Virus record (IMG/VR): IMGVR_UViG_3300005739_000002
Location: 1-64,000 of that record
DNA: 64,000 nucleotides
Origin: a virus
Reading direction: 5' to 3' (one strand)
Positions 11,673 through 54,099 of the stretch are shown here, piece after piece. The position numbers and the translations under genes are program-made. Position 1 is the first letter of the stretch; the number at the start of each line of letters is the position of its first letter. The notes beneath the pieces were generated by a model. The model did no database searches and was not told the origin of the DNA. It saw nothing but the letters and a program-made list of their open reading frames with translations.

Positions 11673-12743
11673 ATGGCATCTGGTATTACGGGTACTGGCA
11701 ATCTAGCCGCAGCCCCAACAGCATACTCAGGTACTAACACCCAGCTTACTCAGGCGATTCAGGTTATCTGGTCCAAGGAAATCTTGTTCCAGGCAATGCC
11801 TATCCTTCGCTTTGAGCAGTTTGCAGTCAAGAAGACTGAACTTGGTGTTGCACCTGGTTTACAGATTAACTTCCTGCGTTACAACAACCTCGGCTTCGCT
11901 AATGCGCTCGTTGAAGGTGTTCGTATGCAGACCAACGCACTAACTGCACAGCAGTTCTCAATTACCGTTACAGAGCATGGATATGCTCTTGCGGTTTCCG
12001 AACTATTGCTTAATGCATCCTTCGATGACGTAATGGCATCAGCCTCACGTCTACTTGGTCGTAACATGGCTATCTATCTAGACCAGCTATCACGCGACAC
12101 CCTCTACGCAGCGACTTCAACCGTATACGGTGAAGACCGCTCTAACCTCTCAGCAGTAAATAACTGGTACGCATACGGAACCAACGGTACAAACCGTGCT
12201 TCCATGACAGGTGCTTTCTACCTAACACCACATACTGTTAAGGACATCGTAGAGACCCTAGCAACAAAGAACATCCCACGGTTAGGTGAGACCTATGTAG
12301 GTTTCATTCACCCACACCAGAGCCGTCAGCTTCGTGATAACCCAGAGTTTATCGAAGTAACTAAGTACGCTGCTCCTGGTAACTTCATGCTCGGTGAAGT
12401 CGGTCGTTTGTATGACTGCGTATTCATTGAGACCACTCAGGTTCGTAAGGTTGTTGGCGGTGCTGGTTCTGGCTATTCAGCAGATACAGCAGTTGCTAAC
12501 CCAACTGTTACACCTGGTGGAGGTTACATCACCCCAGCACAGTTCACAGGTAACGGTAACCGCGACCGCTATGACGCTATCTTCATTGGAGATAATGCAT
12601 TCGGTCACGCTATCTCACTACCAGTCGAACTTCGCGACGGTGGTATTCTCGACTTCGGTCGTGAGCACGCGCTTGCTTGGTACTCAATCTTCGGTCTTGG
12701 TCTAATCACTGACCAGTCTGTAGTTATTGCAGAAACCAACTAG
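11673..12743 (+). CDS. major capsid protein (N4 gp56-like family)
   Basis: 356 aa; YVGFIHPHQ...GEVGRLY...FIET, DFGREHALAWY motifs; strong SD and codon bias. Confidence 0.9.
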   Translation: MASGITGTGNLAAAPTAYSGTNTQLTQAIQVIWSKEILFQAMPILRFEQFAVKKTELGVAPGLQINFLRYNNLGFANALVEGVRMQTNALTAQQFSITVTEHGYALAVSELLLNASFDDVMASASRLLGRNMAIYLDQLSRDTLYAATSTVYGEDRSNLSAVNNWYAYGTNGTNRASMTGAFYLTPHTVKDIVETLATKNIPRLGETYVGFIHPHQSRQLRDNPEFIEVTKYAAPGNFMLGEVGRLYDCVFIETTQVRKVVGGAGSGYSADTAVANPTVTPGGGYITPAQFTGNGNRDRYDAIFIGDNAFGHAISLPVELRDGGILDFGREHALAWYSIFGLGLITDQSVVIAETN

Positions 12744-14304: not shown

Positions 14305-17109
14305 ATGCCAGATATTATTATAGTTCCACCCGATAGCGGTAATTGGTACCCACAACCTACAGGTCCTACTGGACCACTTAATGGTCCAACTGGCCCAACT
14401 GGTCCAACTGGCCCCACAGGTCCTCAAGGAGATTACTCTCGTTATCTTGGAATCTTTGACACTCTTGCAGACCTACAAACAGCTCACCCAAGTCCAGTAC
14501 CAACTAACTGGGCATTCGTACGTGTAGCAGGTAGCGCAACCACATTAAGACTTTATCGTCGTAGTAATAACGCATGGGTATTTGACACTTTAACTTTACC
14601 TACAGGAGCTACGGGAGCTACTGGTCCTACAGGACGTACAGGAGCAACAGGCCCACAAGGAAATCAAGGAGCGGCAGGACCTGCTGGTCCTACTGGTGCT
14701 CAAGGTGTTTCAGGTATTGCTGGTGCAACTGGTCCTACAGGTGCTCCTGGTCAAGGTTTAAATATTCTTGGTGAATACCCAACGCTTGTCGCATTACAAA
14801 CAGCAAGACCAACTGGCAATCCTGGTGAGGCCTATCTCCTTGCTAACGGTAATTTAATAATTTGGAATACAGTAACATCTGAATGGACTAACGTTGGTAA
14901 CTTAGAAGGACCTACAGGTCCTGCTGGTGTTGCTGGTCCTGCAGGTGCAACTGGTCCTCGTGGTGTTCAAGGTTTTCAAGGTGCACAGGGACCACAAGGA
15001 GATACTGGTCCTACTGGACCAACGGGCCCTACTGGTTTAGCTGGACCCCAAGGTCCTACTGGACCGCAAGGTGCACAAGGCTTTTCTGGTCTTCAAGGAA
15101 ACACTGGTCCAATAGGTCCAACTGGTGCAACGGGTCCTACTGGTGCACGGGGTCAAGGTTTTGCTGGAATAAACTCTGTATCTGCAATAAGTTTAGGTCT
15201 TGGATTAAAAACATTTACTTTAAACATTTCTGACCACCCATTTATAGTTAACTCTATTATTAGAGCAGTAGCTAACGATAATGTATTTTTAGATGGACTT
15301 GTTAAAACTGTAAACGGCGCCCAAATAACTGTAGAAGTAGAAAACTTTACAGGTGCTGCAGCAGGCGCAATCTTTAATAACTGGCTATTTACCGTTACTG
15401 GTGAACCAGGCTTTACTGGTGATACTGGTCCAATAGGACCTACTGGACCAACTGGAGCTGCTTCTACAGTACCTGGACCTACTGGTCCTACGGGTGTATC
15501 TGGTGGTATTGACCTTACTATAACCAGAAGCGGTAGTACTTATGTAATTAATGGATTAACAAATCCTAATATTACAGTTATTCGCGGACTTCGTTACCGT
15601 CTTGATATAACAACTCCAGGTTACACATTTAGGTTACAAACAACCGCAGGTGCTTACAATGCGGGGTCTCAATATACCTCTGGTCTAAGCGCTAACCTTG
15701 TAACAGGCTTAGCAAATGGAACTGGTTTCTGGGATGTTCCATTCACTGGTCCTGCAACTTTATATTTTGTTTCAGAAGAAGATTCTGCACTTAACGGCTC
15801 ATTTACAGTAACTGCTGCTGGACCTATTGGACCAACTGGTCCAACTGGTGCAACAGGTGCCGCATCTACTGTAACAGGTCCAACTGGTGCAACAGGTGCA
15901 ACTGGTCCACAAGGTATTCAAGGTCCTACAGGTCCTCAAGGTAATCAAGGTATTGCGGGTGCTCCTGGTGTTCAAGGAGCTACAGGTCCTCAAGGACCGC
16001 AAGGTATTCAAGGTGCAGCTGGTACGCCTGGTGCTGCTGGTGCTGCTGGTGTTACTGGTCCTACAGGTGCGACTGGTGCGACTGGTCCAGAGGGCGCTGG
16101 AATATTTATTCTTGGTTCGTACAACTCACTAGCAGAACTTCAAGCTGCACAACCTGTTGGTGCAATTGGTGACGGATATCTTGTAAATGGTGTTCTATTT
16201 GTATGGGCTGGTTCTCAATGGGCTAGCGCTGGAGCAATTCAAGGTCCAACTGGAGCACAGGGTCCACAAGGTATTCAAGGTTTATTGGGACCAACAGGTC
16301 CACAAGGTGACACTGGTCCGCAAGGTATTCAAGGCGTTGTTGGTCCTGTTGGCCCAACGGGTGCAACTGGTCCTGTATCAACTGTTCCTGGCCCTACTGG
16401 TCCACAAGGTATTCAAGGTGTAACAGGTCCGCAAGGTCCGCTTGGACCAACAGGTCCTCAAGGCCGTGGCCTAAATATTTTAAATGCGTTTAGCACATTC
16501 CAAGAACTTATTGCTGCTGTTCCTTCTCCTGTAACTGGTGACCCATACCTTGTAGCTGGAAACCTATTTATTTGGGATGGCGACCAGTGGATTAACGCGG
16601 GCGCTGTTCAAGGACCTACTGGTGCAACTGGACCGCAGGGTCCATTAGGACCTACGGGTGCACAAGGAAATTCAATTACAGGACCTACGGGTGCGACTGG
16701 TGCTACTGGTCCACAACCATTTACTATTGTAGGAACTTGGCAATCAGGAATTTCGTACAGTCCTGGACAAGCAGTTTTTTATGACACTCCTACATTAAAA
16801 GGTACGTATCTTCGTAGAAACAACAACTCTACGCCAGGAATAACTCCTCCAGAAGATACCGCAAACTGGTTAATTATTGTTGCTGCAGCAATAGGTAATA
16901 CTGGTCCTACTGGAGCCACAGGCCCTACGGGTGCTCAAGGTATTCAGGGTATTCAGGGCTTACTTGGACCTACAGGTCCACAGGGTAATCAAGGTTTACT
17001 AGGTCCAACAGGCCCTACAGGCACTACACTACTTAACGTAGATGGTGGTAGCCCTGTAAGTAATTACGGTGCAGTTATCAACATTGACAGCGGAGGAGTG
17101 GTTCAGTAA
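14305..17109 (+). CDS. collagen-like fibre protein with repeated globular interruptions
   Basis: Extensive Gly-X-Y (GPT/GAT/GPQ) runs; four related ILG.Y..L..LQ.A.P...GD.YLV.G.L..W...W...G modules. Confidence 0.9.
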
Positions 17110-17522
17110 TGCCAATTAAGATTCAATTACGCCGTGGCACGGCTAGCGAATGGTCAACTGCTAATCCAGTTCTCTCAGAAGGTGAACTAGGTCTTGAGTT
17201 AGACACTGGAAAGTTTAAGGTTGGCAACGGTACTGGTGCTTGGAATACGCTAGTATATGCATCTGGTATTCAAGGACCAACAGGGCCGCAAGGTGTCGCA
17301 GGTGCCGCTGGACCAGCAGGTGCTAACGGAGCAGCAGGTGCTCCAGGACCAACTGGTGAGCGCGGGCCGACAGGTATCCAAGGACCTGCTGGTGATGGTG
17401 GAGTAGGCCAACTACTTCTTAACGACGCACTACTTCAAACTGGTATTTATTTTCCAGTTGGAGCTGTTACTAGATTTACTAACGTGGTACAAACCGTGAT
17501 ACCACCGATTACGTTAATATAG
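17109..17522 (+). CDS. fibre protein with Mtd/hyaluronidase N-terminal domain and short collagen
   Basis: IQLRRGTASEW...NPVLSEGELGLELDTGKFKVGNG. Confidence 0.8.
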   Translation: MPIKIQLRRGTASEWSTANPVLSEGELGLELDTGKFKVGNGTGAWNTLVYASGIQGPTGPQGVAGAAGPAGANGAAGAPGPTGERGPTGIQGPAGDGGVGQLLLNDALLQTGIYFPVGAVTRFTNVVQTVIPPITLI

Positions 17523-17534
17523 GAAGGTAAGTGA

Positions 17535-20500
17535 ATGGCACGCAATATTGCGCCTGAGTACTACGAGTGGAACCCCACCACTAAACAAATCACTATTGAC
17601 CGCTACATTAAGCGTGTTCACTTGTTCCTTATTGTCAACTCAACCCGCAATAAGATTTTATTTAACTTTAGCGACCCAACTCAGACAATCACAGTTAGCT
17701 ATCTGTATCCTGACTACAGCATTGCTCACCCTATGGGTGAAACTTCTTATAGAACTGTAATTACTCTTAATGCATCTGTTGATACAACAGGCATGTTGTC
17801 TACAGATACTCTGCAAATTATTGTAGACGACGAGCACCAAAAGGTTACATTTGATGACACCTTTATCGATGGTGCACAGAAGCTTCGTACATCAGAGCCG
17901 CAGTCCCTTATGGATACCGACTTTGAGTACTCAGTACAGCCGTCTAAGTGGGAAGCGATATTCCTAGCAAATGGTTACCCATCATTCTTCCCTAAGGCAT
18001 CTGGCGGTAACTCCTTTGACGTTGTTTCTATTATTGGTAATGGAGTACGCCCGCGTTCATCAATGACAGTGACAACCGCTCTTCCTCACGGCTTAACTCC
18101 AGGTCAGATTGTTTCTGTACAAGAAACTCTTAACTATCTTGCCGAAGGAACTGCTTTAGTAACCGCTGCGCCAACAACCACTACATTTACATACACCGCT
18201 CGCGGTGCTGTATCTGGTGACGTAGCTTCTGGAACTCTTACTACTGTATATGGTGGAGACATCTTTGACGGCGCACATATTCCTGGTGGTAACTTCCCAA
18301 TCGGTGGTATAAACACCCTTAACCGTTGGAGAGCAACAGTAGATGGTGCTGCTCCTATCTCAACAGTAACAGCCATTTTTGACCAACCACACGGCATCTT
18401 TCCAGGAAATCTTATTGTTGTCTCTGGTACAAACAGCTTTGACGGTAACTGGCAGGTAACTAAGGTTCCTACTCAGACCACTTTAGAGTTTTCTCTCGAC
18501 CGTCAGCAGTCTGCTGTATCTGTTCCTACCACTGCTCTCATCATTGCAAAAGGCGATGGATACGTTATTCAACGTCCTTATGATGGCGGCGTATCAATGT
18601 CTACTGCTACAAACTCTATGGGCTCTCAGACAATCCGTCAGACCCGCCGCTACTTCCGTTACCAATCAGGTAAAGGTCTTCAGTTCTCAACTGGCGCACA
18701 GCTCACTCCTGTATACGATGTTGAGCAGCTGTTTATTAGCGGAGGTTCCGTAGGACTTAATACAGTTACAGTAAAGACTGTTCAAGACCACGGTATGCAG
18801 GCAGGCGTTACGGTTGACATTGAAGGTGTTCGTACCCGTTTTGCCTATAACCCATTCAACGGAAATAACTTTATTGTATCTCGTGTAATTGACGTAAATA
18901 CTTTTGAATACCAAGTAACTCTAACTGAGACGTTACCTCTAGTTGACCAGAATCCAGGCGGCACTAACGTGTATGTCCACGCTCGTAAGTGGTTTGGTGC
19001 TGTTACTCGTTGCGGTATGTTTGATGACCAGAACGGTTTCTATTTTGAGTACGACGGTCAGAAGATGTTCTGCGTACGCCGTCACTCTGAAAAAGAAGGT
19101 ATTGGCCGCGTAAACGTAGTAAAGAACTCTAGCTTCGTTACTGGTCTTAACACTCAGTTCCGTAAGCAACTTACTGTAGGACAGTCCATTGTTATCAAGG
19201 GCTCTTCATACCGCGTAATTGCTGTTAACAGCGCAACCTCTATCAACATCTCTCCTGCATACCGCGGAGCTACTGGTAACCGTACTCGATATCTAATTAC
19301 TCAAAATGACCGATTCCCTCAAGATGAATGGAACGTTGATAAGTTTGACGGAGAAGGTCCATCGGGATATCTGCTAGACGTTGGTCGTATGCAGATGGTG
19401 TTTATTGACTACACCTGGTACGGCGCAGGTACTGTTCGATTCGGTATGCGTGGTCCTAATGGCAAGGTTTACTGGTGCCACAGACTTCCACAGAACAACG
19501 TAAACAACAGCGCTTACCAGCGTTCAGGTAACCTTCCTGCTCGTTACGAAGTCTCTAATGACCCATCAATCTTCACCAAGATGGTTGCAGGTCCTTCAGG
19601 AAACTTAGGTTCGCAGCTAGGTCCAAACGATACAGTCATGTACGTTGAAGACGGGCGTAACTTCCCAACATCAGGATTTATCTATGTTCGTGATGCTGTC
19701 AACTGTGAAATCATGCGCTACTCATCAGTAGGTGCGTTTGACCCTGTAAAGCGTGGTTATCCAATCACCATTGCTCAGCGTCGTGCATCTATCACTAATA
19801 TCTATCCAGATACACCGTTTACCTTTAGCGGCACCACAACGCCAGTTACATTTACCCCAGACTCATCTATTACTGGTGTTGGTGGAGATGCTCAGGTTGC
19901 AGTTCAATCAATTACTCAGAACTGCGCCCCAATCATCAGCCACTGGGGTTCATCGGTCATCATGGACGGCCGCTTCGATAACGACGAAAACTTTATCTTC
20001 ACTGGTGGTATGACCAAGCTTCTCAACGTAGCAGCGGGTGTTACCCGTCCGCTTCTAGCGCTTCGTCTAGCCCCATCTGTAGATAACGGTATTGCTCGTA
20101 ACTTTGGTATCCGTGAGTTGACCAACCGTATGCAGCTTCAAATGAACTCTATCGGTGTTACTACTAATGGACAAATGCGTATTGACGCAATTCTTAACCC
20201 TAACCAAATCTTCTACAACACTTATGCTCCAGCAACGCTAGCTGTTTCTCGTTCCTGTACAGGTGCCTCGGGAAGTATTCAGCTTACTGTTACTGATGCT
20301 GCTGGTACTAACGGTATCGTTCCAGGTATGATTGTTACTGGCGGTAATGTTGGACCAGGTGCTCAAGTAGCTACTGTTACAGCTAACATTCTTACACTGT
20401 CTGTGCCTAACGCGGGCGCGGTGTCAGGCGGTATTACGTTTACGCCTCGCACTGGATACGTAGGTCTACCTGATGACTGGTCTCGTGATTTGGTTGGTTC

Positions 20501-20825
20501 TGGTTCCCTTGCTCAGATTATCTACTTTGACAACTCGGGTCCTGGAGCTGGTGGTGTTCAAGCTGCCTCTGGACGTATTTCTGGCGGTGACTCGGTTGCC
20601 TCCTTCTACTCAGAAAACGGCGGTGGTTCCTCTAACTTCAACGTCTCTAACTTCGACCTTAGAGATATCCGAGACCTAGGTAACTCCATCATTAGCGGCG
20701 ACGGCAACGTGTCAAGCCCTAGCTACCCTAACGGCCCAGACATTATCGTCCTTACAGCCACCAACATCGGTACTGCGGCGTCTAATATTTCAGCCCGTAT
20801 CTCATGGATTGAGGCCCAGGCATAA
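17535..20825 (+). CDS. large beta-rich virion appendage/receptor-binding protein
   Basis: Core QTRRYFRYQSGK...GMFDDQNG...WNVDKFDG.GPSG...YTWYGAG with several inserted TT..PHGL..G..V beta-modules. Confidence 0.7.
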   Translation: MARNIAPEYYEWNPTTKQITIDRYIKRVHLFLIVNSTRNKILFNFSDPTQTITVSYLYPDYSIAHPMGETSYRTVITLNASVDTTGMLSTDTLQIIVDDEHQKVTFDDTFIDGAQKLRTSEPQSLMDTDFEYSVQPSKWEAIFLANGYPSFFPKASGGNSFDVVSIIGNGVRPRSSMTVTTALPHGLTPGQIVSVQETLNYLAEGTALVTAAPTTTTFTYTARGAVSGDVASGTLTTVYGGDIFDGAHIPGGNFPIGGINTLNRWRATVDGAAPISTVTAIFDQPHGIFPGNLIVVSGTNSFDGNWQVTKVPTQTTLEFSLDRQQSAVSVPTTALIIAKGDGYVIQRPYDGGVSMSTATNSMGSQTIRQTRRYFRYQSGKGLQFSTGAQLTPVYDVEQLFISGGSVGLNTVTVKTVQDHGMQAGVTVDIEGVRTRFAYNPFNGNNFIVSRVIDVNTFEYQVTLTETLPLVDQNPGGTNVYVHARKWFGAVTRCGMFDDQNGFYFEYDGQKMFCVRRHSEKEGIGRVNVVKNSSFVTGLNTQFRKQLTVGQSIVIKGSSYRVIAVNSATSINISPAYRGATGNRTRYLITQNDRFPQDEWNVDKFDGEGPSGYLLDVGRMQMVFIDYTWYGAGTVRFGMRGPNGKVYWCHRLPQNNVNNSAYQRSGNLPARYEVSNDPSIFTKMVAGPSGNLGSQLGPNDTVMYVEDGRNFPTSGFIYVRDAVNCEIMRYSSVGAFDPVKRGYPITIAQRRASITNIYPDTPFTFSGTTTPVTFTPDSSITGVGGDAQVAVQSITQNCAPIISHWGSSVIMDGRFDNDENFIFTGGMTKLLNVAAGVTRPLLALRLAPSVDNGIARNFGIRELTNRMQLQMNSIGVTTNGQMRIDAILNPNQIFYNTYAPATLAVSRSCTGASGSIQLTVTDAAGTNGIVPGMIVTGGNVGPGAQVATVTANILTLSVPNAGAVSGGITFTPRTGYVGLPDDWSRDLVGSGSLAQIIYFDNSGPGAGGVQAASGRISGGDSVASFYSENGGGSSNFNVSNFDLRDIRDLGNSIISGDGNVSSPSYPNGPDIIVLTATNIGTAASNISARISWIEAQA

Positions 20826-20901
20826 TGTCAGCGGTTTACGGTGACCCTATTATTAAAGACGATATACTTTTAATGACCTCGGAAGGTAGGTAAAAACCCA
20901 C

Positions 20902-21240
20902 ATGCCAGATTACACATCGCTTAGTACGCAGATTGATGCGGTTAAGGCAGAAATTACATCTAGCTTAAACGCTAGCACTTACACTGCTCAAGATTTAATC
21001 TATGTAGCTAAGGCCCTTGAAACTATGGGCACTCTTCTGGGTGTCAATGACATCGTTGCTGCAACCGCGGACCGCGTAACAGCAATCACAACCGCTGGTA
21101 CAACGCAGGTTACTGCTGTTAACACAGCGGGCACCACACAGGTTTCTGCAGTAAACACTGCGGGAAATAATAAGGTCGCTGCAATCGCTGCAGAGGCCGC
21201 TAACTTAACCGTACTAGCGTATATAGGAGTACTCGACTAA
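20902..21240 (+). CDS. coiled-coil fibre stalk protein with 11-aa repeats
   Basis: ITTAGTTQVTA/VNTAGTTQVSA/VNTAGNNKVAA repeats. Confidence 0.65.
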   Translation: MPDYTSLSTQIDAVKAEITSSLNASTYTAQDLIYVAKALETMGTLLGVNDIVAATADRVTAITTAGTTQVTAVNTAGTTQVSAVNTAGNNKVAAIAAEAANLTVLAYIGVLD

Positions 21241-21545
21241 TGCCTACAACCGTAACCCGTTTTAGGGCACTTACCGCTGGAACCACGGATGGCAGCGCTT
21301 ATTCGGTTCCTGCAAGTAACACCGCAATTATTACAAACGTGGTCTTAGCAAATAAGACCGCAGCAACAAGAACAGTAACAGTTACCACTGGTGGCTTTGC
21401 ATTCTGTTCAGGTCTACAGGTTCCAGCAAATGGAACTGTAAACTTTGATGCTCGCGTAGTTTTAAACGCAACTGAAACAATCTCCGTTACAGCAGACGTA
21501 GGGTCTGCAGTTGACGTTTTGATTTCAGGCGTATTGATTTCTTAA
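21240..21545 (+). CDS. small beta-sandwich virion protein
   Basis: YSVPASNTAIITNVVLAN...ETISV...VLISG pattern; coupled to upstream gene. Confidence 0.6.
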   Translation: MPTTVTRFRALTAGTTDGSAYSVPASNTAIITNVVLANKTAATRTVTVTTGGFAFCSGLQVPANGTVNFDARVVLNATETISVTADVGSAVDVLISGVLIS

Positions 21546-21572
21546 TAAAAGGAAAAGGACAGGTAACTATAA

Positions 21573-24500
21573 ATGGCAATATCCTCAAGTAAAGACTTTA
21601 TCGTCTTCCCGAACGACAATTCGGGTCGTTTGTTTGTCAATGAGGCCACCTTTACAGCCAGTGGTACCTGGACCGCGCCTGCTGGTGTGACCTTCGCCCA
21701 AGTTGTACTCGTCGGTGGTGGCGGCGGTGGTGGCGGCGGTTCTCAGAACGTCGCAGGTGGTGGCGGTGCTGGTGGTCAGGTAATTGTTAAAAACATTGCT
21801 GTAACCCCAGGAACAACCTATAACATTACTATTGGTGCTGGTGGACAAGGTGGTCAGGGTGCAATTAACGGCGCTACTGATACTGTTAACACACTACCTG
21901 GTGGTAACGGTTCTGCAACTATCTTCGGTAACATCACAATTGCTAACCTTCTTGTAAACCCAGACTTTGATTACAGCGTTCAGTCATGGGATTCAGCAAC
22001 CTACTACCGCTCAGCAACTGGTATCTCTGGTCAATCTTCGATTACCGTATATCCAAATGCTGCTGGTCTAACAGTTGGTCAGCGTGTAACAGGCACTAAC
22101 ATCGGTTCTAACGCACGTATTGCTGGTATCTCTGGCAACGTAGTAAGCTTGAACGTAGCTAACACAGCTACAGTAGCTACCGTAATTGGCTTTTCACAAG
22201 GTGAGTCTGTAGTACGTCCTTCTAACGTATTCTTCTACAACATCTCCTCAGCAGCTTCTGACATCACAACGAACCCACAGACTGGTAATACTGCAGGTTC
22301 TCCATACTTCAGAAACCTATCCAACAACCTCTTGCAGCCAAACATTGCACAGCTTGAGGATGCAGCAACCCTATCTGGAAACTTGCTACGTCAATTTGGT
22401 ACCTCTCTTTCAACATTTGCTATCAACAACGCTGGTGTTCCTACCAAGCTTCCAGAAATGGTTGGTGGTTATACCAAGACTGCTACCACAGTCCTAAGCT
22501 CTACCACTGTTACTCTTAACAACACTAATGATGTATATCCAAACATGTACATTGTTGGAACTGGTTTTGCTTCAGGTACTGTAGTCCTTAGCGTTGATAG
22601 CGCAACTACAATTACAATCTCACAGGCAGCAACTGCTAACGGCACCGTTACAGCCACAGTCTCCTACTCAGGAGCCTTTGGTATCAACGGTCTTATCTGC
22701 GGTACTAGCTCTTCAACATCAGCTGGTGCTCCAACATGGGTTCAGTTCTCAAACATGAACTCAACAACAACCTCTAACGGTACGCAGACATCTACAAGCC
22801 AGCAGGGTGTTCCTTACATCCCAGGTGCTACCTATACCTTCTCTGCTTATATTTCTACAAACGTAAATATCAGCACATCTACACCAATCCTCTTCCAGCT
22901 ACGTTCTGCAGGCGCTTCCCGTAACGCGGTTTCAAGCACCTCTTACCTAGGTGGTTCTAACTCAGGTACAACTGACTCAATTGATGCGGGTACAGCTAAC
23001 GGATTCTTCGTACGTCAAGGAATTCCAGCAACCCTTACTAACTACGGTGGGGCCTTTACAACTACCGCTAACGCAGCTAACGGCGCAACCACAATTACCG
23101 TTGCAGATGCAACAGGTATCTTGATTGGTATGGCTATTACTGGTTCTGGTATCCAATCAGATACAATCGTATCTAACGTAGTCGGAACTACCATCAGCAT
23201 CAACAAGACCACTAACGCAACTTTGACTGATAGCACTGTTAACTTTGCTAACCCAGCAGGTGTTCAGATGCTTGGCTCTAACGTAACTGTTGGTCAAACA
23301 GGATGGCGCCGTCTTTCAGCGACATTTACCACACCAACAATTGCTTCTGCTCTTGCTAACGGTGTCTATGCGTTCGGTTCTACACCTCAGTTCGTACACC
23401 CAGTTATTGTATTCCAGCAGGGTTCTGTAAACTTCTGGATTGATAACCTACAGCTTGAGGTTGGTAACACAACCACTACATGGCGCCCACCTGTCTATCG
23501 TGAGGCTCAGTCAATGCTTATGCAGACTAACTCTGCGGCTGGTGCAAACCTCGAAACATCACACCGTTTCGTACGTGTTAATCCAAGCACTCAGTACTCA
23601 GGCTCTGCCTTCGTGGTAGCAACTGGTACTTCAAACCAATACCGTCCAGTACGTGCTTACATTGAGTACTTTGATGCAGACTTCAACTCTGTACTTCGTA
23701 CCGAAGGTAACAACGTATTCTTGCCAATCTCTGGTGTAGCAACATCAAACCAGCAGATGCCAGCAGTAACTTACCCAGTTCGCGTAGTAGTTAATGGTGC
23801 TAGCTCACCCGTTAATGCACGTTACGCTAAGTTTGGCGTCATGGTTCTTGAAGCTGCACAAAGCGCTACAGGTTCTGCAATCGAACACCACATCATTGCT
23901 CCTCAGCTTGAGCCAGCAGCAGTTGCAACCACCTACAAGAAGGTTGATAACGTCAACTACTTCTACGCAGGTCAAGCTGGCCTAACCCCAATCGTTTCAT
24001 CTCTTGGCACTCTTGCCGCAGAAGGTGGTGGCGGTGGCGGTACCTTTAACACCAACTCCACACACTGGCAGTATGGTCTCATCGGCGGTAACAACGGTGG
24101 ACACGCTGCTAACAACTCCAGCACTACTACCACTCTTGCAGGTGGTGGCGCAGGCGCAGGCGGCGCTGGTGAAACAGCTCGCATCTACGGTGTAGGTGTA
24201 TCTGGTGGTAACTCTATCGACGGTTTCCGTACAACTGGTGGAGGTTCACAACAGATTTGGCCAATGCGTGGTCACCAAGGTGGATACGCACTTTGGAACT
24301 CTGGTACCAACAACTCACACCCAATGGGCGAAGCTGGTAAGGGCGGACCTGGTGTTCTCCTCAACGGCTTGAGCTCTGGTTCTCCACTCGGTCTACCAGT
24401 TGCTGGTGGCGGTGGCGGTGCTGGATGGTCAGCATCTAACTCTATTAACCAATCAATTCCTGGCATCGGTCAGAACGGTGGCGGTAAGGGTGCTCCAACA

Positions 24501-25238
24501 TACTTGGTAACCCAGGCCTCAACTACAGCGGATTACTACGCACGTGGTCTTGACGCTGTAGCAAACACTGGTGCAGGTGGTGGCGGTGGTGGTTCTAACT
24601 GGACTAACACTCCTCAGACACTTGCTAACCACAACTCTGCTAACGCAGCGTGTACTTATGAAGCTATCTCGTCTGAGTTCTTCAAGTGGAACCCAATCTA
24701 TAATGCAAACATTGTTATCTCAGCACAGGCTGGTTTCTATGGTTCAAACGTTCTACGTACAACCATCCAAGATACTGGTAATGCAAAGATTACAACTTCA
24801 TGGCAGTCCTTCCCAATCCTTCCACGTATCCCGCTAGTATTCCCTGGTGTGGCTGCACGTCTAACAACTGCCCCAGGCGGTGTGACCTCTGCACAGTTCA
24901 CTGGTCTACCAAAGCGTGTACGTCCAACAGTTCGTTGGAAGAATGAGAACAACGTAATCATTCGTGAAGACCGCCCTACATTTGATATCCAGTTCTCTGG
25001 AACTAACACAATTACATACCTTGGTGCATCAGGCGCAACCTCTGGCTACTGGCAGACACATGCCGCTCCAGCAGGCGCAGCTTACTTCGATGTGACATGG
25101 GAATTCCTATACATGGATGCTGGTGACGTTGTTGACGTTGACTTCGGTGGCTGCCAGTACTACGCATTCTCATCCTTTGGCGGAAACGGCGCAGATGGCT
25201 ATGCTATGGTTCGCTGGTTCGACAAGGCAGTACTCTAG
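21573..25238 (+). CDS. glycine-rich fibre/adhesin with nested carbohydrate-binding-module-like inserts
   Basis: FTASGTWTAPAGVT..VVLVGGGGGGG Gly-rich domain; NLLVNPDF, GATYTFSAY, WRRLSATF, IDNLQLE CBM4/9-like motifs. Confidence 0.75.
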   Translation: MAISSSKDFIVFPNDNSGRLFVNEATFTASGTWTAPAGVTFAQVVLVGGGGGGGGGSQNVAGGGGAGGQVIVKNIAVTPGTTYNITIGAGGQGGQGAINGATDTVNTLPGGNGSATIFGNITIANLLVNPDFDYSVQSWDSATYYRSATGISGQSSITVYPNAAGLTVGQRVTGTNIGSNARIAGISGNVVSLNVANTATVATVIGFSQGESVVRPSNVFFYNISSAASDITTNPQTGNTAGSPYFRNLSNNLLQPNIAQLEDAATLSGNLLRQFGTSLSTFAINNAGVPTKLPEMVGGYTKTATTVLSSTTVTLNNTNDVYPNMYIVGTGFASGTVVLSVDSATTITISQAATANGTVTATVSYSGAFGINGLICGTSSSTSAGAPTWVQFSNMNSTTTSNGTQTSTSQQGVPYIPGATYTFSAYISTNVNISTSTPILFQLRSAGASRNAVSSTSYLGGSNSGTTDSIDAGTANGFFVRQGIPATLTNYGGAFTTTANAANGATTITVADATGILIGMAITGSGIQSDTIVSNVVGTTISINKTTNATLTDSTVNFANPAGVQMLGSNVTVGQTGWRRLSATFTTPTIASALANGVYAFGSTPQFVHPVIVFQQGSVNFWIDNLQLEVGNTTTTWRPPVYREAQSMLMQTNSAAGANLETSHRFVRVNPSTQYSGSAFVVATGTSNQYRPVRAYIEYFDADFNSVLRTEGNNVFLPISGVATSNQQMPAVTYPVRVVVNGASSPVNARYAKFGVMVLEAAQSATGSAIEHHIIAPQLEPAAVATTYKKVDNVNYFYAGQAGLTPIVSSLGTLAAEGGGGGGTFNTNSTHWQYGLIGGNNGGHAANNSSTTTTLAGGGAGAGGAGETARIYGVGVSGGNSIDGFRTTGGGSQQIWPMRGHQGGYALWNSGTNNSHPMGEAGKGGPGVLLNGLSSGSPLGLPVAGGGGGAGWSASNSINQSIPGIGQNGGGKGAPTYLVTQASTTADYYARGLDAVANTGAGGGGGGSNWTNTPQTLANHNSANAACTYEAISSEFFKWNPIYNANIVISAQAGFYGSNVLRTTIQDTGNAKITTSWQSFPILPRIPLVFPGVAARLTTAPGGVTSAQFTGLPKRVRPTVRWKNENNVIIREDRPTFDIQFSGTNTITYLGASGATSGYWQTHAAPAGAAYFDVTWEFLYMDAGDVVDVDFGGCQYYAFSSFGGNGADGYAMVRWFDKAVL

Positions 25239-25972: not shown

Positions 25973-27031
25973 ATGAAAATAGCCGTATACACCATCGCAT
26001 TAAATGAGGAACAGTTTGTAGAACGCTGGTATGAATCAGCTAAAGAAGCTGACTACCTGATGATTGCTGACACAGGCTCTGTTGATGAGACTGTGAGTAA
26101 GGCTGAAGCCCTAGGAATTGTGTGCCACAAAATTAGTGTGCGTCCGTGGCGGTTTGATGATGCCCGTAACGCAGCGCTCGCCCTATTGCCAGATGACATT
26201 GACTACTGCATCTCTTTAGATATGGATGAGATACTCGCCCCAGGCTGGCGCGATGAAATGGAAAAGATTCCTGTTGGGTCTACTCGTATACGCTACAACT
26301 ATACATGGAACTTCCAACCAGACGGCTCTCCAGGTCTAACATTTGCTGGAGACAAGATTCATGCACGCCACGGGTACCGTTGGCAACATCCTGTACATGA
26401 ATGTTTATATACAGATAGGCTTGTAGAAAAAGAATATTGGTCTCAACTAGGGCTGTGGCATAAAGCTGACGACCAAAAATCTCGTGGGCAGTATCTACCC
26501 TTACTTAAATTATCTGTAGAAGAAGACCCTACGAATGACCGTAATGCGTATTACTATGCTCGTGAACTATTTTTCCACGGGCAGTATGAAGAGGCCCTTG
26601 TGCAATTTAAACGCCACCTGTCTTTACCTAAAGCTGTGTGGAAAGCCGAACGTGCTTCTTCTATGAGATATATAGCTAAGTGTTCTACTGAGGAATCTGA
26701 AAAACTTAAATGGTGGAAATTAGCTGTACAAGAAGAACCAGCTAAACGTGAAGCTTACGTTGAGTTGGCGCAATACCACTATGACAAAGGTAGATTTGAA
26801 GAGTGCTATATGTGGGCTAAGAAGGCAGTTAATATTAAAAACAAAAGCATGGACTATTTAAATGAAGCCTTTGCTTGGGGCGCTACTCCTTACGACCTAG
26901 CTGCTGTATGTGCATACTGGCTAGGAGAGCGAGAAAAAGCGCTTGAATATGGAACTATGGCTGCAGAGTTAAGCCCTACAGATGAGCGAATACTGGGTAA
27001 CCTAGAGTTCTACAAGCAGGGAGTTAAATGA
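25973..27031 (+). CDS. GT2 glycosyltransferase with C-terminal TPR repeats (leaderless)
   Basis: IALNEE, DTGSVD, WRFDDARN, SLDMDE, VHE motifs; TPR helices; TATAAT 6 nt before ATG. Confidence 0.88.
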   Translation: MKIAVYTIALNEEQFVERWYESAKEADYLMIADTGSVDETVSKAEALGIVCHKISVRPWRFDDARNAALALLPDDIDYCISLDMDEILAPGWRDEMEKIPVGSTRIRYNYTWNFQPDGSPGLTFAGDKIHARHGYRWQHPVHECLYTDRLVEKEYWSQLGLWHKADDQKSRGQYLPLLKLSVEEDPTNDRNAYYYARELFFHGQYEEALVQFKRHLSLPKAVWKAERASSMRYIAKCSTEESEKLKWWKLAVQEEPAKREAYVELAQYHYDKGRFEECYMWAKKAVNIKNKSMDYLNEAFAWGATPYDLAAVCAYWLGEREKALEYGTMAAELSPTDERILGNLEFYKQGVK

Positions 27032-27566: not shown

Positions 27567-28793
27567 ATGACCCATACAGGTAACTTACGCTCTACTCCAG
27601 CAGACTCAGTTATTAATTCAGAAACTTTTACTTCTAAAGATAGACTTAAAACATCAGATGTAACCACAACCTACTTTACTAGCTTTCAGTTTGGTCAAAC
27701 AGGTGATTGGGATTCACAAGTATCTAACGGTGGAACCAAAACTTACAATGCCACGTTAGGTGGTATAGACCTAGGAGTATCTAGCACTTTAGATTCAGAG
27801 TCTATATTTCAAACTAGACGTGTAATGAGTTATGTTCCAGGTCGTGCAAGTGGTTTAAGTGGAGCCTACAGACTGAGCAATCTTACTTCTGGTATTAGAT
27901 ATCGTTGGGGGATATTTGATGAAAACAATGGAGCATTTGTTGAAGTAAATGGTAGTAATATTTATTGTGTAGTTAGAAGCAACACAACAGGCAGCGTTGT
28001 AGATAGTAGCGTGCCAAGAAGCTCATGGAATGAGGATAAGCTAGACGGCACTGGACGAAGTGGAATTACACTAGACCTTACTAAACAACAATTAATATAT
28101 ATTGAATATGAGTGGTACGGGGCTGGGGAAGTTAAATATTACTTTGTAATTGATGGACGTAAACGTTTAGTACATGTAGCTAGCCACGCTAATCATATAT
28201 CAACAGTGTATTGTAGAACTCCATTTTTACCTATTAGAGCAGAGGTAAAAAACCTAACAGGAGCTACTGGCGGTGGCATCTTGTATTTTGGTTCTGTTTC
28301 TCATGTTAGCGAGGGCGACTCTGCCCGCAGAGGCCAAACCCAAAATATAGCTAGCCCTATAACTGGATACTCATGTGCAACTGCTGGTACTTTTTATCCT
28401 GTATTTAGTGGTCGCTTAAAATCTACCGCACTTAACGCACTTGTTAAACCACTCAGTATGAGGCTGTCTTCACTAAATCACACAAGCGATGGTTTACATT
28501 GGAGAATTATTTTTAGTGGCACGCTAACTGGTGGGACATGGGTAGACTTTCCTATTGCCGACCCAGTAAGTCAATACAATACTACTGCTACAGCAATATC
28601 CAGCGGATATACATTGGTTGCTGGATTTCAACCAGCGTCAGCAGCAGGTCAACTAATTACATTCCCTCTTGAAAATAATCCATTAGGAAGAGGTCTTTTA
28701 GGTACAGTTAGTGACCAGATTACGTTAGCTGTAGCAGGCGTCAACAACACTACAACAGTAATGTGGTCTATCGATTGGCTAGAAGAAAGATAG
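27567..28793 (+). CDS. beta-sandwich virion protein, paralog of the core of 17535-20825
   Basis: QTRR..Y.PG, WGIFDENNG, WNEDKLDGTG.SG, EYEWYGAG motifs shared with 17535-20825. Confidence 0.7.
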   Translation: MTHTGNLRSTPADSVINSETFTSKDRLKTSDVTTTYFTSFQFGQTGDWDSQVSNGGTKTYNATLGGIDLGVSSTLDSESIFQTRRVMSYVPGRASGLSGAYRLSNLTSGIRYRWGIFDENNGAFVEVNGSNIYCVVRSNTTGSVVDSSVPRSSWNEDKLDGTGRSGITLDLTKQQLIYIEYEWYGAGEVKYYFVIDGRKRLVHVASHANHISTVYCRTPFLPIRAEVKNLTGATGGGILYFGSVSHVSEGDSARRGQTQNIASPITGYSCATAGTFYPVFSGRLKSTALNALVKPLSMRLSSLNHTSDGLHWRIIFSGTLTGGTWVDFPIADPVSQYNTTATAISSGYTLVAGFQPASAAGQLITFPLENNPLGRGLLGTVSDQITLAVAGVNNTTTVMWSIDWLEER

Positions 28794-28808: not shown

Positions 28809-28955
28809 ATGCCTTTTAAGTCCAAGCAACAGCGTAAGTTCATGTACGCTAAGCATCCAGAGATGGCTAAGGAGTGGGAAGAGAAAACCCCTAAGGGTAA
28901 AGCCCTTCCTAAGAAAGTCAAGAAAAAAGGAGCATCAAGTGGCAAAAAAAGATAA
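28809..28955 (+). CDS. 48-aa Lys-rich protein (not in ORF track)
   Basis: MPFKSKQQRKFMYAKHPEMAKEWEEKTPKGKALPKKVKKKGASSGKKR. Confidence 0.75.
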   Translation: MPFKSKQQRKFMYAKHPEMAKEWEEKTPKGKALPKKVKKKGASSGKKR

Positions 28956-29109
28956 ACCAGTATGGGATAAGAAGGACCCAACCCCAGGTAAATCTAGTAA
29001 ACTTAGCAAGAAGCAGAAGTCCTCTGCAAAGGCTAGGGCGAAGGCAGCAGGCCGCCCCTATCCTAACCTCGTAGACAACATGGCTGCTGCAAGAAAGAAG
29101 AAAAAATAA
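28939..29109 (+). CDS. 56-aa Lys-rich protein (not in ORF track)
   Basis: GTG start with SD AAGGAG; MAKKDKPVWDKKDPTPGKSSKLSKKQKSSAKARAKAAGRPYPNLVDNMAAARKKKK. Confidence 0.75.
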   Translation: MAKKDKPVWDKKDPTPGKSSKLSKKQKSSAKARAKAAGRPYPNLVDNMAAARKKKK

Positions 29110-29288
29110 TGTGCGCTACTTGTGGTTGCATGGGCAAGAAAAAGAAGGCTCCAGCTAAGAAGGCTGCTGCTAAGAAGGCTGCTCCAAAGGGCATGTCATC
29201 TAAGCAGAAAAAGCTTGATGTTGATAAGGACGGCAAGTTAGAAGGCTCTGACTTTGCTGCTCTCCGTTCAAAGAAAAAGAAGAAATAA
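29109..29288 (+). CDS. 59-aa Lys-rich protein with N-terminal MCATCGC and an EF-hand-like loop (not in ORF track)
   Basis: TAATG coupling; MCATCGCMGKKKKAPAKKAAAKKAAPKGMSSKQKKLDVDKDGKLEGSDFAALRSKKKKK. Confidence 0.75.
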   Translation: MCATCGCMGKKKKAPAKKAAAKKAAPKGMSSKQKKLDVDKDGKLEGSDFAALRSKKKKK

Positions 29289-29431
29289 TGTGTGCGACGT
29301 GCGGCTGTGGTCAACCGAAGAACAAGCACGGAATGAAGACCCTCAAGGCGGCGAACAAAAAGTTTGCTGCAAAGAAGGGTGCACCTGCAAAGGCTAAAAA
29401 AGCCTCAATGGTCCGTAAGAAAGGCATGTAA
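29288..29431 (+). CDS. 47-aa Lys-rich protein with N-terminal MCATCGCG (not in ORF track)
   Basis: TAATG coupling; MCATCGCGQPKNKHGMKTLKAANKKFAAKKGAPAKAKKASMVRKKGM. Confidence 0.75.
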   Translation: MCATCGCGQPKNKHGMKTLKAANKKFAAKKGAPAKAKKASMVRKKGM

Positions 29432-29646
29432 TGAAGAAGCCTCCTATGAAAGGCAAGTACACAGAAGCGTCTGATAAGAAGATGGATGCCTACCTGACTA
29501 AAGGTCTTTCTAAGAAGGAGAAGGCTGAGTTCAAGAAAAAAGACACAGCCCATGGCAAGAAGAAAAAGCCTAAAACTCTTCAGGAAGACGCCCCAATTGA
29601 TAAGAAGATTATCAAGGATATAAAGGCAAAACGTAAAAAGAAGTAG
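29431..29646 (+). CDS. 71-aa Lys-rich protein
   Basis: TAATG coupling; very Lys-rich. Confidence 0.75.
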   Translation: MKKPPMKGKYTEASDKKMDAYLTKGLSKKEKAEFKKKDTAHGKKKKPKTLQEDAPIDKKIIKDIKAKRKKK

Positions 29647-29653
29647 TTCGCTT

Positions 29654-29680
29654 AGGCCCCCGAAAGGGGGCCTTTGCTTT
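29654..29680 (+). terminator. intrinsic terminator closing the Lys-rich cassette
   Basis: AGGCCCCC-GAAA-GGGGGCCT-TTGCTTT. Confidence 0.85.
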
Positions 29681-29752
29681 ATCCTAGTAGTGAATCCATG
29701 CGGGATTCAAAGCTTCACCCCTGCGTTATACCTTGCGATTAATAGGACGGCC

Positions 29753-29899
29753 ATGTCTAAAAAAGTATCCTCAGCCTCTGATAAAGAGTTTAGGAAAGAG
29801 ATAGGCAAAGCCATTCCTGGTGTCAACGCATTCTTAGCTTTGACTGTCGCAACATACGCACTGGGGAGAACCGTTGCAAAACGTAGAAAATCTAATTAA
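29753..29899 (+). CDS. small hypothetical protein with a hydrophobic segment
   Basis: ATG 29753 after AGGA; MSKKVSSASDKEF... Confidence 0.45.
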   Translation: MSKKVSSASDKEFRKEIGKAIPGVNAFLALTVATYALGRTVAKRRKSN

Positions 29900-30912: not shown

Positions 30913-32415
30913 ATGGCATTTCAACGCCCTGGGGTATATGTACAAGAAGTACTTAACCCTGTACAACCAGTTCCTGGAGTAAACTCTCAGTTCGTAACCG
31001 CATTTATTGGTGAGAACGACCGAGGTCCAGTCAACACCCCTACACTTATCACTTCCTGGAATCAGTACGTAACAACGTTTGGTTCTTGGAATAACTACAC
31101 ACTAAACACATTACCTATTGCGGTATATATGTTTTTCTCTAATGGAGGAAGCGCTGCGTATATTACTCGTATCGCTAACTCTGCGACTACCGCAGTTCGT
31201 TCTCTAAACGACCGAGCTGTTAGCCCGTCAGCAACGCTATCTATTACGGCTAAAAACCCTGGACGTTGGGGAAATGATTTAAATATTTCAATCTCTAACT
31301 CTATTACAACTGGGTATTTTGACCTAATTGTTTATCAAGGCGGAACAACAGATGCTAACATTGTAGAGACATTTACTCAGCTATCTATGACAACTACAGA
31401 CAGTAGATATGCTCCTCTAACTGTTAACCCTATTTCAAACTATGTTACTCTAATTGATTTAAACTCTGCTAATACTGGTACTACAAGAAACCCAGCAGTA
31501 GTAGCAAACCAAACGCTAACAGGCGGTGGAACTGGTGGAAGTATTACCGTAACAGAATTTTCTGCTGGTCTTGCTTCACACGACATTCTTCAACAGTCTT
31601 TGGTTATCAATCTTCCTGGACAGACAGCAGCTAATATTGTAAACTCTGCAATTAGTTACGCTGAAGGAAGAGATGATGTATTTGTAGTAGTTGATGGTCC
31701 AGATGACACACCAGCTAATGCTCTAACTTTAGCTGCTACCTATACGCCAAGTTCTTTAGCAGCTGTTTATTACCCACAGCTTGTTATTGCAGACCCAACA
31801 GTAGGCGTTGGTGGAACACTTGGAAGAACCCTTACAGTCGGCGCAGGAGCTGCAGTTGCAGGTCTTATCGCGTCAACTGATGCATCACGAGGAGTGTACA
31901 AAGCTCCAGCTGGTTTGCAAGCACGTCTTGCAGGGGTTGTATCAACTCGTCCATTAACAAATGCAGCACTTGATTCCTTAAATACCGCGGCTGCGCCTGT
32001 TAACGCTATACGATTTATTCCTGGCTCTGGCCATGTTGTAATGGGTGCAAGAACCCTCAAAGGCGGCTATGTAGATAAGTATGTTCCAGTACGTCGTACT
32101 CTCATTTATCTACGTAAGTCTTTAACTGACCTAACTCAGTTTGCAATTTTTGAACCTAATAATGAAAACTTATGGCGACGTTTGGAGTCATCAGTTAGTT
32201 CATTCCTTACACAGTTTTGGTCACAAGGTGGGCTTCGAGGCACCACCCCAGACCAAGCGTTCTTCGTTAAAGTCGATGCTGAGAATAACCCTCAGTATTT
32301 AATTGATAATGGCGAAGTACACATTGAGGTTGGCGTTGCTCTACAACGTCCAGCCGAATTCGTAGTCATTAAGATTGGTCAGTTTGACGGTGGAACCACC
32401 GTTACTGTGGCGTAA
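30913..32415 (+). CDS. tail sheath protein
   Basis: RPGVYVQE, GVYKAPAG, GARTL, YVPVRR, FEPN, PAEFV motifs. Confidence 0.95.
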   Translation: MAFQRPGVYVQEVLNPVQPVPGVNSQFVTAFIGENDRGPVNTPTLITSWNQYVTTFGSWNNYTLNTLPIAVYMFFSNGGSAAYITRIANSATTAVRSLNDRAVSPSATLSITAKNPGRWGNDLNISISNSITTGYFDLIVYQGGTTDANIVETFTQLSMTTTDSRYAPLTVNPISNYVTLIDLNSANTGTTRNPAVVANQTLTGGGTGGSITVTEFSAGLASHDILQQSLVINLPGQTAANIVNSAISYAEGRDDVFVVVDGPDDTPANALTLAATYTPSSLAAVYYPQLVIADPTVGVGGTLGRTLTVGAGAAVAGLIASTDASRGVYKAPAGLQARLAGVVSTRPLTNAALDSLNTAAAPVNAIRFIPGSGHVVMGARTLKGGYVDKYVPVRRTLIYLRKSLTDLTQFAIFEPNNENLWRRLESSVSSFLTQFWSQGGLRGTTPDQAFFVKVDAENNPQYLIDNGEVHIEVGVALQRPAEFVVIKIGQFDGGTTVTVA

Positions 32416-52896: not shown

Positions 52897-52908
52897 TAAG
52901 GTGGGTTT

Positions 52909-53064
52909 ATGGTTGATATGCTTTTATGGTTCGTACTTGGGTTAGTAGTAGGTTTAGCTTTAGATTGGGTATTAGTAAAAATTATGTTGCGTTCAGTTAA
53001 CACAAGGCTCATGGCTCTGGAGGTTAACCAGCGTAGACAAGACGTAGTTTGTAAATGTAACTAA
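52909..53064 (+). CDS. 51-aa membrane protein (not in ORF track)
   Basis: MVDMLLWFVLGLVVGLALDWVLVKIMLRSVNTRLMALEVNQRRQDVVCKCN. Confidence 0.55.
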   Translation: MVDMLLWFVLGLVVGLALDWVLVKIMLRSVNTRLMALEVNQRRQDVVCKCN

Positions 53065-53069
53065 GCAAT

Positions 53070-53142
53070 TGGACCATAGCTCAGTCGGCAGAGCGAGGAG
53101 CTGTTAACTCCTAGGTCCCTGGTTCGAGCCCAGGTGGTCCAG
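53070..53142 (+). tRNA. tRNA-Asn (GTT)
   Basis: Acceptor TGGACCA/TGGTCCA; anticodon arm AGGAG-CTGTTAA-CTCCT; GGTTCGAGCC T-arm. Confidence 0.92.
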
Positions 53143-53146
53143 CTTC

Positions 53147-53222
53147 GCGGACGTAGCGCAGTTGGTAGCGCGGAACCTTGCCAAGGTTCAGGTCGCGGGT
53201 TCGACCCCCGTCGTCCGCTCCA
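53147..53222 (+). tRNA. tRNA-Gly (GCC), CCA encoded
   Basis: Acceptor GCGGACG/CGTCCGC; GAACC-TTGCCAA-GGTTC. Confidence 0.93.
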
Positions 53223-53223
53223 G

Positions 53224-53294
53224 TGCCCTCTCGTCTAACGGTAGGACATCGCGCTCTGGACGCGAGAGTTGAGGTTCGAATCCTTGGGGGGCAG
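53224..53294 (+). tRNA. tRNA-Gln (CTG)
   Basis: Acceptor TGCCCTC/GGGGGCA; TCGCG-CTCTGGA-CGCGA; GGTTCGAATCC. Confidence 0.9.
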
Positions 53295-53336
53295 CTTTAG
53301 CAGTACATACAGACCTATAGTAAATACACTATAAGT

Positions 53337-53486
53337 ATGCCTAACTCACCAAAGACCCCCACACGTACTATCCGTGTGTCAGATAATCTATGGACAGCGG
53401 TCCAGAAGAAAGCTGCAGCTGAGAAGGTTACGGTAACCAGCGTTATCATCCGTGCTCTTCAAAACTATATTAAAGAAGATAAATAA
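53337..53486 (+). CDS. ribbon-helix-helix DNA-binding protein, leaderless (not in ORF track)
   Basis: MPNSPKTPTRTIRVSDNLWTAVQKKAAAEKVTVTSVIIRALQNYI; TACACT 6 nt before ATG. Confidence 0.8.
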   Translation: MPNSPKTPTRTIRVSDNLWTAVQKKAAAEKVTVTSVIIRALQNYIKEDK

Positions 53487-53645
53487 ATGGGGAAACACCA
53501 CGATAAGGTAGCTGCTGCATTGGAATGGCGTATTAAAACTATGCCTAAGGGTTCTGGATTTAAGAAGCCTGGGTCTATGAACCCACGCAAGACTGGCTAC
53601 CGCAGCATCAATGCGGCTGAGGCTAGAAAAGCAATTAGCAAATAG
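53487..53645 (+). CDS. 52-aa basic protein (not in ORF track)
   Basis: MGKHHDKVAAALEWRIKTMPKGSGFKKPGSMNPRKTGYRSINAAEARKAISK. Confidence 0.6.
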   Translation: MGKHHDKVAAALEWRIKTMPKGSGFKKPGSMNPRKTGYRSINAAEARKAISK

Positions 53646-53647
53646 AC

Positions 53648-53676: not shown

Positions 53677-53705
53677 CTGCCTAACAGCTAAACGTTAGGA
53701 AACTT

Positions 53706-54098: not shown

Positions 54099-54099
54099 T

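Follow-up and report, generated by a model that had tools for sequence, protein, structure and literature searches.

In the IMG/VR virus record IMGVR_UViG_3300005739_000002, five short open reading frames (ORF1 to ORF5, Table 1) constitute this phage's copy of a hypervariable, translationally coupled micro-protein cassette of WhiB-encoding phages of Actinobacteria. The stretch analysed here, referred to as the window, covers the first 64 kb (64,000 nucleotides) of the record, which is complete at 98,018 bp and has direct terminal repeats, and the 98-kb virus is a complete myovirus. The cassette closes the late head/fibre operon just ahead of the tail genes. Its five ORFs are real protein genes under purifying selection, and among related loci the core order of ORF3-type, ORF4-type and ORF5-type genes is conserved behind interchangeable upstream modules, with parts shuffled between members. 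ORF3 and ORF4 start with the same cysteine-rich tag. From the genomic context we propose, with somewhat less than even confidence, that the peptides are encapsidated with the genome and delivered with it.

The preliminary description of this region had reported five ORFs of 48, 56, 59, 47 and 71 residues, linked by a Shine-Dalgarno-GTG overlap and three TAATG junctions and closed by a strong terminator, and we recovered the same coordinates, starts and junctions. The GTG of ORF2 lies 7 nucleotides (nt) after AAGGAG and the gene overlaps ORF1 by 17 nt; ORF3, ORF4 and ORF5 each begin on the last A of the preceding TAA. The terminator hairpin consists of an 8-bp stem with 7 G-C pairs, a GAAA loop and a T-rich tail, and folds with -23.7 kcal/mol (z = -3.6). 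A search of Rfam gave no match of the cassette region to any family. The extreme Lys richness ascribed to all five peptides was evident from their composition, with 28-37% Lys against 4.9% in the large ORFs of the genome, a net charge of +13 to +17 and an isoelectric point above 10. The PAKKA-type tracts, which had likewise been attributed to all of them, occur as A/P/K tracts in ORF3 and ORF4 but not in the other three.

Table 1. Features of the cassette and of the structural genes around it (positions in the window)
Feature	Position	Strand	Remarks
Large terminase	6541-8130	+	
Portal	9034-10743	+	
Major capsid protein	11673-12743	+	
Collagen-like and other fibre/structural proteins	14305-25238	+	
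Virion structural protein (phrog_1645)	27567..28793	+	PHROG E 3e-107; same operon, context only, not in the cassette
ORF1	28809..28955	+	48 residues, Lys 31%; PFKSxxQ-type variable upstream module; weak phrog_1375 match, E 0.003
ORF2	28939..29109	+	56 residues, GTG start; GRPYPN module; phrog_34011, E 6e-19
ORF3	29109..29288	+	59 residues; HypB-type N-terminal Cys3 tag, A/P/K tract, EF-hand/dockerin-like loop, conserved DFxxL+KKK end
ORF4	29288..29431	+	47 residues; same tag within a 16-residue module, Lys-rich tail, conserved C-terminal octapeptide
ORF5	29431..29646	+	71 residues, Lys 37%; FEKxD/KYT family, last member of the cassette core
Intrinsic terminator	29654..29683	+	hairpin 29654-29673; closes the operon
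Sheath	30913-32415	+	followed by tube and baseplate (tail module after the cassette terminator)

The two tag copies are written in different codons, from which selection at the protein level had been predicted, and comparison with homologues agrees with this prediction. Wobble positions vary, synonymous codons differ at each tag codon among tag-bearing loci, and the ORFs are conserved with pairwise ratios of nonsynonymous to synonymous substitution (dN/dS) far below 1. These ratios are 0.13-0.25 across all five families, with or without the first eight codons (ORF1, 0.15-0.25; ORF2, 0.13-0.15; ORF3, 0.18-0.21; ORF4, 0.13-0.18; ORF5, 0.13), and are approximate because dS is near saturation. For ORF4, 158 homologue clusters were found in a large protein collection, all named 'hypothetical' and without Pfam family, on contigs of up to ~100 kb. 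Short, low-complexity ORFs under the usual gene-calling cut-offs could be read as chance open frames in an A-rich spacer that are never translated. However, the low dN/dS in all five families, the varied synonymous codons at every tag position and the conserved start-stop overlaps effectively refute this reading, to which we assign a negligible probability, and the existence of hundreds of homologues argues in the same direction.

The content of the slot changes quickly between relatives. A contig with an 80% identical upstream structural protein carries another set of coupled Lys-rich micro-ORFs at the same site, one of which opens with a Ser variant of the tag and another of which joins the C-terminal module of ORF3 to the C-terminal octapeptide of ORF4. 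The nearest relatives of the structural protein (Manatee Spring phage and S-SZBM1) are without such a cassette, and blastn of the cassette region against cultured phages gave no match. The preliminary description had suggested tracing the peptides by tblastn and by a pattern search. We found no match by tblastn with ORF2 and ORF4, and also with a peptide of the DKINLT family (see below), among cultured phages, for which low-complexity masking is a possible cause; the tag pattern was found widely in viral contigs.

We scanned IMG/VR viral contigs with a degenerate DNA pattern for Met-Cys-x-Thr-Cys-Gly-Cys-Gly, which occurs twice in the window and in none of 100 shuffles, and obtained at least 120 stretches. 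Nearly all of the matches listed are the first codons of ORFs of 27-80 residues in recognisable families. The tag, MCxTCGCG, heads at least eight unrelated small bodies, some of them not Lys-rich, and one XkdF-type protease (at least 120 viral loci), and the suggestion of an N-terminal tag shared by different proteins was thus borne out. The anatomy of the cassette was derived from 122 loci retrieved via the tag, a sample biased towards tagged cassettes. The commonest order is a DKINLT-family gene, an NPCWxGY-family gene, a tagged ORF3-type gene, a tagged ORF4-type gene and an ORF5-type gene. The upstream modules vary, and ORF1, whose family is found in other cassettes too, and ORF2 fill the variable upstream slots in the window. 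An ORF5-type gene directly follows a tagged ORF4-type gene in 40 adjacent pairs, and two tagged genes are present in 48 of the 122 cassettes. Junctions between the small genes are mostly 1-nt overlaps (219/296, 74%), with 4-nt overlaps in another 16 of the 296. The terminator hairpin recurs behind the cassettes of related loci, where it reads as short spurious ORFs starting ..PRKGAF... In 28 cassettes, one peptide (27-84 residues) prolongs its tag by metallothionein-like CxC/CK runs and has 6-10 Cys in them.

A second lineage with genomes of ~40 kb carries the cassette after a major capsid protein of the same phrog_1357 family and an HslV-like peptidase, and ahead of phrog_27452, phrog_7578 and a tail fibre gene. 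Among cultured phages, Planktophila phages E7 and F5 are related to this lineage, and the homologous slot of E7 holds a Lys-rich micro-protein cassette without the tag. This cassette of Planktophila phage LanE43-AprE7, a Nanopelagicales phage with an unannotated record (OX376640.1; 2781-3735 of locus L218), encodes peptides of 53, 61 and 84 residues, the second DUF6496-like and the third phrog_7595-like by eye, and the phage could serve as a laboratory model for the untagged form. The tag itself was not found in E7, F5 or the cultured Actinomycetia phage DSL-LC01.

No paper in the literature searched mentions the motif in phages, and the tagged families have no Pfam family, PHROG function, PDB relative or paper there. 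The ESM Atlas returned unnamed clusters only, and PDB sequence searches gave nothing relevant. The claim that this system had not been described therefore stands for the literature searched, with the exception of the ORF2 module, which belongs to the described theme of polyvalent proteins. The view of the cassette as one late-operon system also has to be narrowed. A second coupled run of Lys-rich micro-genes lies at 89310-90399 of the 98,018-bp record, beyond the window and outside the structural operon, and encodes a DKINLT-family peptide, a 91-residue protein resembling, by eye, the DUF6321 peptide of locus L012 and a 107-residue protein with an HNH-like motif, so that micro-protein modules are not confined to the late operon. 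Near this run, the protein encoded at 87699-87935 has an AKKPAKK tail and seems to span the membrane once.

In E. coli HypB, the N-terminal amine together with Cys2, Cys5 and Cys7 of the CxxCGC motif (residues 2-7) holds Ni(II) at picomolar affinity, and peptide models bind Zn(II) as well (PMC12284835). ORF3 and ORF4 have CxxCGC from residue 2, as in the high-affinity site of HypB. The equation of the two motifs made in the preliminary description thus holds in residue and position, with hits to the NCBIfam model HypB_prefix_1 that remain under its curated 30-bit cut-off (ORF4, E 3e-4, 22.1 bits; ORF3, E 1e-3, 20.3 bits). The 1-nt stop-start overlaps place the tag at the true N-terminus, and Cys at position 2 permits removal of Met1 according to the specificity of methionine aminopeptidase. 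After removal of Met1, both peptides would expose a free Cys2 amine and the thiolates of Cys2, Cys5 and Cys7, to which ORF4 would add His14, and this Cys3 (plus His14) cap is predicted to form a high-affinity site for Ni(II)/Zn(II). In the ORF4 family, M1, C2, T4, C5, G6, C7, K13, H14 and A22 are invariant among 32 homologues, and P10 and G15 are near-invariant. Given the conserved His and the metallothionein-like expansions, the tag is most economically read as a metal-binding site; a role as a pure packaging signal or in disulfide chemistry is less well supported.

Behind the cap, the remainder of each peptide would be a polycation, for the most part disordered or helical, with DNA or another polyanion as its ligand. 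In mycobacterial Ku and HupB, DNA is bound by Lys tails of the PAKKA type (PMC3553676, PMC2932737, PMC5676037). Judged from their sequences, metal binding and polyanion binding by the peptides are well-supported predictions. The structure model of ORF4 (predicted local distance difference test score, pLDDT, 57) is disordered with helical propensity and offers no usable fold. The EF-hand-like loop proposed for ORF3 is present as a 12-residue DxDxDG pattern, in which position 8 is hydrophobic and position 12 acidic, but scores under the Pfam thresholds (Dockerin_1, E 0.0016, 19.1 vs 22.9 bits; EF-hand_1, E 0.019, 15 vs 25.4 bits), and some members of the ORF3 family have lost the DxDxDG part.

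A cellular counterpart of the tag was found in Actinomycetota. Scanning 401 genomes for the tag pattern yielded 8 matches against 0 with the reversed control; one is a true HypB, and six belong to an unnamed family of acidic proteins of ~50 residues without Pfam family (loci L210 and L213-L217), which starts with the same 16-residue Cys3-His module. Comparison by hhalign confirmed that residues 1-16 of ORF4 are shared with this family (97%, E 7e-11). In three of the six loci (L210, L213, L216), the next gene downstream encodes a DUF2231-like membrane protein (two Pfam-confirmed), and the ~50-residue protein may be a small metallochaperone. A cellular small-protein family with the module of ORF4 is hereby defined. 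A phage protease of the XkdF type (Pfam Peptidase_S78_2) starts with the whole ~50-residue domain (99%, E 7e-20), and its PHROG matches include head maturation protease families. This fusion protein has 204 residues (L089:6457-7071), is followed by a 592-residue protein and lies on a 65-kb contig that encodes WhiB. An exhaustive HMMER search with ORF4 gave 12 representatives, ten of which start at the tag and have 32-79 residues, the two longer ones being repeated low-complexity matches, and no fused forms among them.

The sharing of the N-terminal module with a cellular family often found beside a DUF2231 gene suggests a cytoplasmic origin in metal handling, and it raises the alternative that the peptides are made late but act only inside the cell, by buffering or chaperoning metals (Zn, Ni, perhaps Cu) and by binding DNA or other polyanions to aid replication, packaging or nucleoid handling, without entering the virion. 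The metallothionein-like variants, the second micro-protein cluster outside the structural operon and one fusion of the ORF2 module to a ferritin-like domain would also fit such a role. On the other hand, two phage lineages have kept the cassette where the structural operon ends with a strong terminator, a pure metal buffer would have no obvious need of polycationic tails, and the cellular relatives are acidic instead of basic. We consider a purely intracellular role credible, though rather unlikely.

The ORF2 module connects the cassette to much larger proteins. At least 275 longer proteins contain it, often with DUF6321, DUF5824, ART-PolyVal, a ferritin-like domain or wall hydrolases as neighbours; several of these proteins have PF18760 or PF19846, and one of 625 residues contains two ORF2 modules, a DKINLT module and DUF6321. 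Iyer et al. (2017) described such architectures as polyvalent proteins and predict that these enter the capsid and are injected (PMC5512222). The AlphaFold2 model of ORF2 shows helices at residues 24-37 and 44-53 (pLDDT 80-87 there) joined by a loop, forming a helix-loop-helix around the invariant GRPYPN turn. Foldseek of this helical hairpin against the PDB found no match below E = 5, and the histone-fold fragments among its rows are not significant. ORF1 and ORF5 gave no informative matches. The NPCWxGY sister module occurs widely among cyanophages, haloarchaeal viruses and Methylophilales phages. In Actinomycetia phage DSL-LC01 (OQ999401.1) it lies in a 347-residue protein encoded two genes after the portal (L129:3201-4244) and followed by a gene annotated at 52800-62669 (~3,290 residues), a layout like that described for polyvalent proteins.

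Hypervariable modules shuffled at one genomic slot could also indicate an arsenal for counter-defence or host takeover, in which each interchangeable micro-protein targets a different host factor and an arms race drives the diversity, whether or not the peptides are injected. T4 IPI*, a small basic injected anti-restriction protein, is a precedent. Polyvalent proteins, in which the ORF2 module and DUF6321 are found repeatedly, have been proposed as a class to take part in conflicts between phage and host (PMC5512222). Known anti-defence proteins, however, are mostly acidic and early, whereas all members are strongly basic here; the core trio is conserved and not variable; and scans of Pfam, PHROGs and NCBIfam revealed no similarity to known counter-defence proteins. 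This explanation is unlikely in our judgement.

Predicted cationic helical segments, together with fusions of the ORF2 module to peptidoglycan hydrolase domains, might instead point to cationic peptides active on membranes or walls that aid lysis or entry, or to precursors resembling ribosomally synthesized and post-translationally modified peptides (RiPPs). A profile match to an antimicrobial peptide of the PDB (E 0.14, chance level) and a faint NCBIfam match of the cellular relative to the CGCGG target family of radical S-adenosylmethionine (rSAM) enzymes (E 0.036) could be cited in favour, but neither is significant. The peptides lack the transmembrane or amphipathic signatures of known lysis proteins, and no lysin, holin or maturase (rSAM, YcaO) adjoins the cassettes. 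We regard this possibility as very improbable, and its RiPP version was rejected because there are no maturase genes near the cassettes.

For encapsidation with the genome there are circumstantial links to the virion, namely the place at the end of the late structural operon, the ORF2 module in polyvalent proteins, the tagged domain on one XkdF-type protease and the sister module in a protein encoded near the portal gene of phage DSL-LC01. Judged from context, large amounts of the peptides would be produced late in infection and would enter the capsid together with the DNA, as its counter-ions or as internal proteins, to be delivered along with it. T4 internal proteins would be one parallel, and polyvalent proteins, which are predicted to be packaged and have modules in common with the cassette, another. 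Several observations weigh against this explanation. Location in a late operon is no proof of virion incorporation, and related modules (the DKINLT family and DUF6321) cluster at 89.3-90.4 kb, outside the structural operon. There is one instance of the protease fusion, and no ORF4-type forms fused in head proteins were found. ORF3 and ORF4 score under the curated HypB_prefix_1 cut-off, and the structure models are of low confidence (pLDDT 57 and 68). Cell-wall hydrolases and a ferritin-like domain are also among the fusion partners of the ORF2 module, so that other roles are possible.

A more specific version of the packaging proposal is a metal-switched DNA condenser, in which Ni/Zn-thiolate caps, alone or bridged between adjacent ORF3-type and ORF4-type partners and metallothionein-like variants, would cross-link the Lys-rich tails on the packaged genome into a protamine-like internal chromatin that loosens upon metal loss or exchange in the host cytoplasm. 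We consider this version quite improbable. Phage genomes are full of unannotated micro-genes, and the cassette offers a concrete, chemically testable hypothesis for one set of them: a motif of eight residues, for which a picomolar nickel site has been measured in HypB, has been taken up as an N-terminal cap by many different small basic phage proteins, next to metallothionein-like peptides and in a slot conserved in the virion operon of phages of abundant freshwater-type Actinobacteria. Packaged peptides would represent a new class of internal virion proteins and a new role for trace metals in the phage particle; unpackaged ones would suggest that the phage manipulates the host metal supply.

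Every large gene of the window lies on the plus strand, in the order terminase, portal, major capsid protein, fibres, structural protein, cassette, terminator and sheath/tube/baseplate. The structural protein immediately before the cassette is 42-46% identical to a 'virion structural protein' of T4-like cyanophages. The fibre and structural block includes a 934-residue collagen-like tail fibre protein (14305-17109, +), a 1096-residue structural protein (17535-20825, +) that has a domain in common with the 408-residue protein 5' of the cassette (phrog_5838 / phrog_1645), and a fusion of a glycosyltransferase family 2 domain with tetratricopeptide repeats (25973-27031, +; phrog_13126). The first gene past the terminator (29753-29899, +) encodes 48 residues with a hydrophobic C-terminal segment and a basic end. 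Its counterparts come after the cassette in most related loci and are followed by a protein of ~106 residues with a conserved LEYG motif, a protein of ~210 residues and then the sheath.

The phage is probably an actinophage, as it encodes two WhiB-family proteins (PF02467, 61 and 47 bits; 59512-59829, +, in the window, and 74234-74422 beyond it), and WhiB is used as an actinophage marker (PMC10202952, PMC10914622). Their closest cellular relatives are nearly all from Actinomycetota, mostly Acidimicrobiales, with ~41% identity. WhiB is encoded by 13 of 18 tag-bearing contigs and by 7/7 of those that are at least 90% complete, with genome classes of ~40 kb, ~65 kb and ~99 kb covered. The sheath is nearest to those of Streptomyces phages, and the G+C content of ~44% is close to values reported for Nanopelagicales phages and their host (PMC10202952).

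The finding is not categorically new, since each ingredient, the HypB-type metal cap, the polyvalent-protein modules and the basic internal phage proteins, has a precedent. In T4, internal proteins with unrelated bodies bear a common short N-terminal targeting tag and accompany the DNA. Like IPI-III of T4 and protamine/H1-like condensers, the PAKKA tails of actinobacterial HupB and Ku included, the cassette peptides are small and very basic, but they have no sequence similarity to either group and no prohead-protease site (hydrophobic-x-Glu) after the tag, the first 20 residues of ORF3 and ORF4 being without Glu. With the N-terminal extension of HypB (NF053667) they share Met1, Cys2, Thr4, Cys5, Gly6 and Cys7, plus Gly8 in ORF4; however, the phage ORFs are polycations of 47 and 59 residues without a GTPase domain (no Pfam domain) or hydrogenase context, and the PxxxHG extension of ORF4 is absent from the one actinobacterial HypB seen (295 residues, with the tag). 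The ~50-residue actinobacterial family is acidic and helical after the common module, where the phage proteins have Lys-rich tails. Sister peptides of other cassettes resemble metallothioneins in having 6-10 Cys in CxC/CxxC runs interleaved with Lys, whereas ORF3 and ORF4 of the window have only three Cys each, and no metallothionein family was matched. Finally, in polyvalent proteins the ORF2 module is one bead among ART-PolyVal, DUF6321 and DUF5824, whereas here the modules are free-standing, translationally coupled micro-genes, with the ORF4-type unfused.

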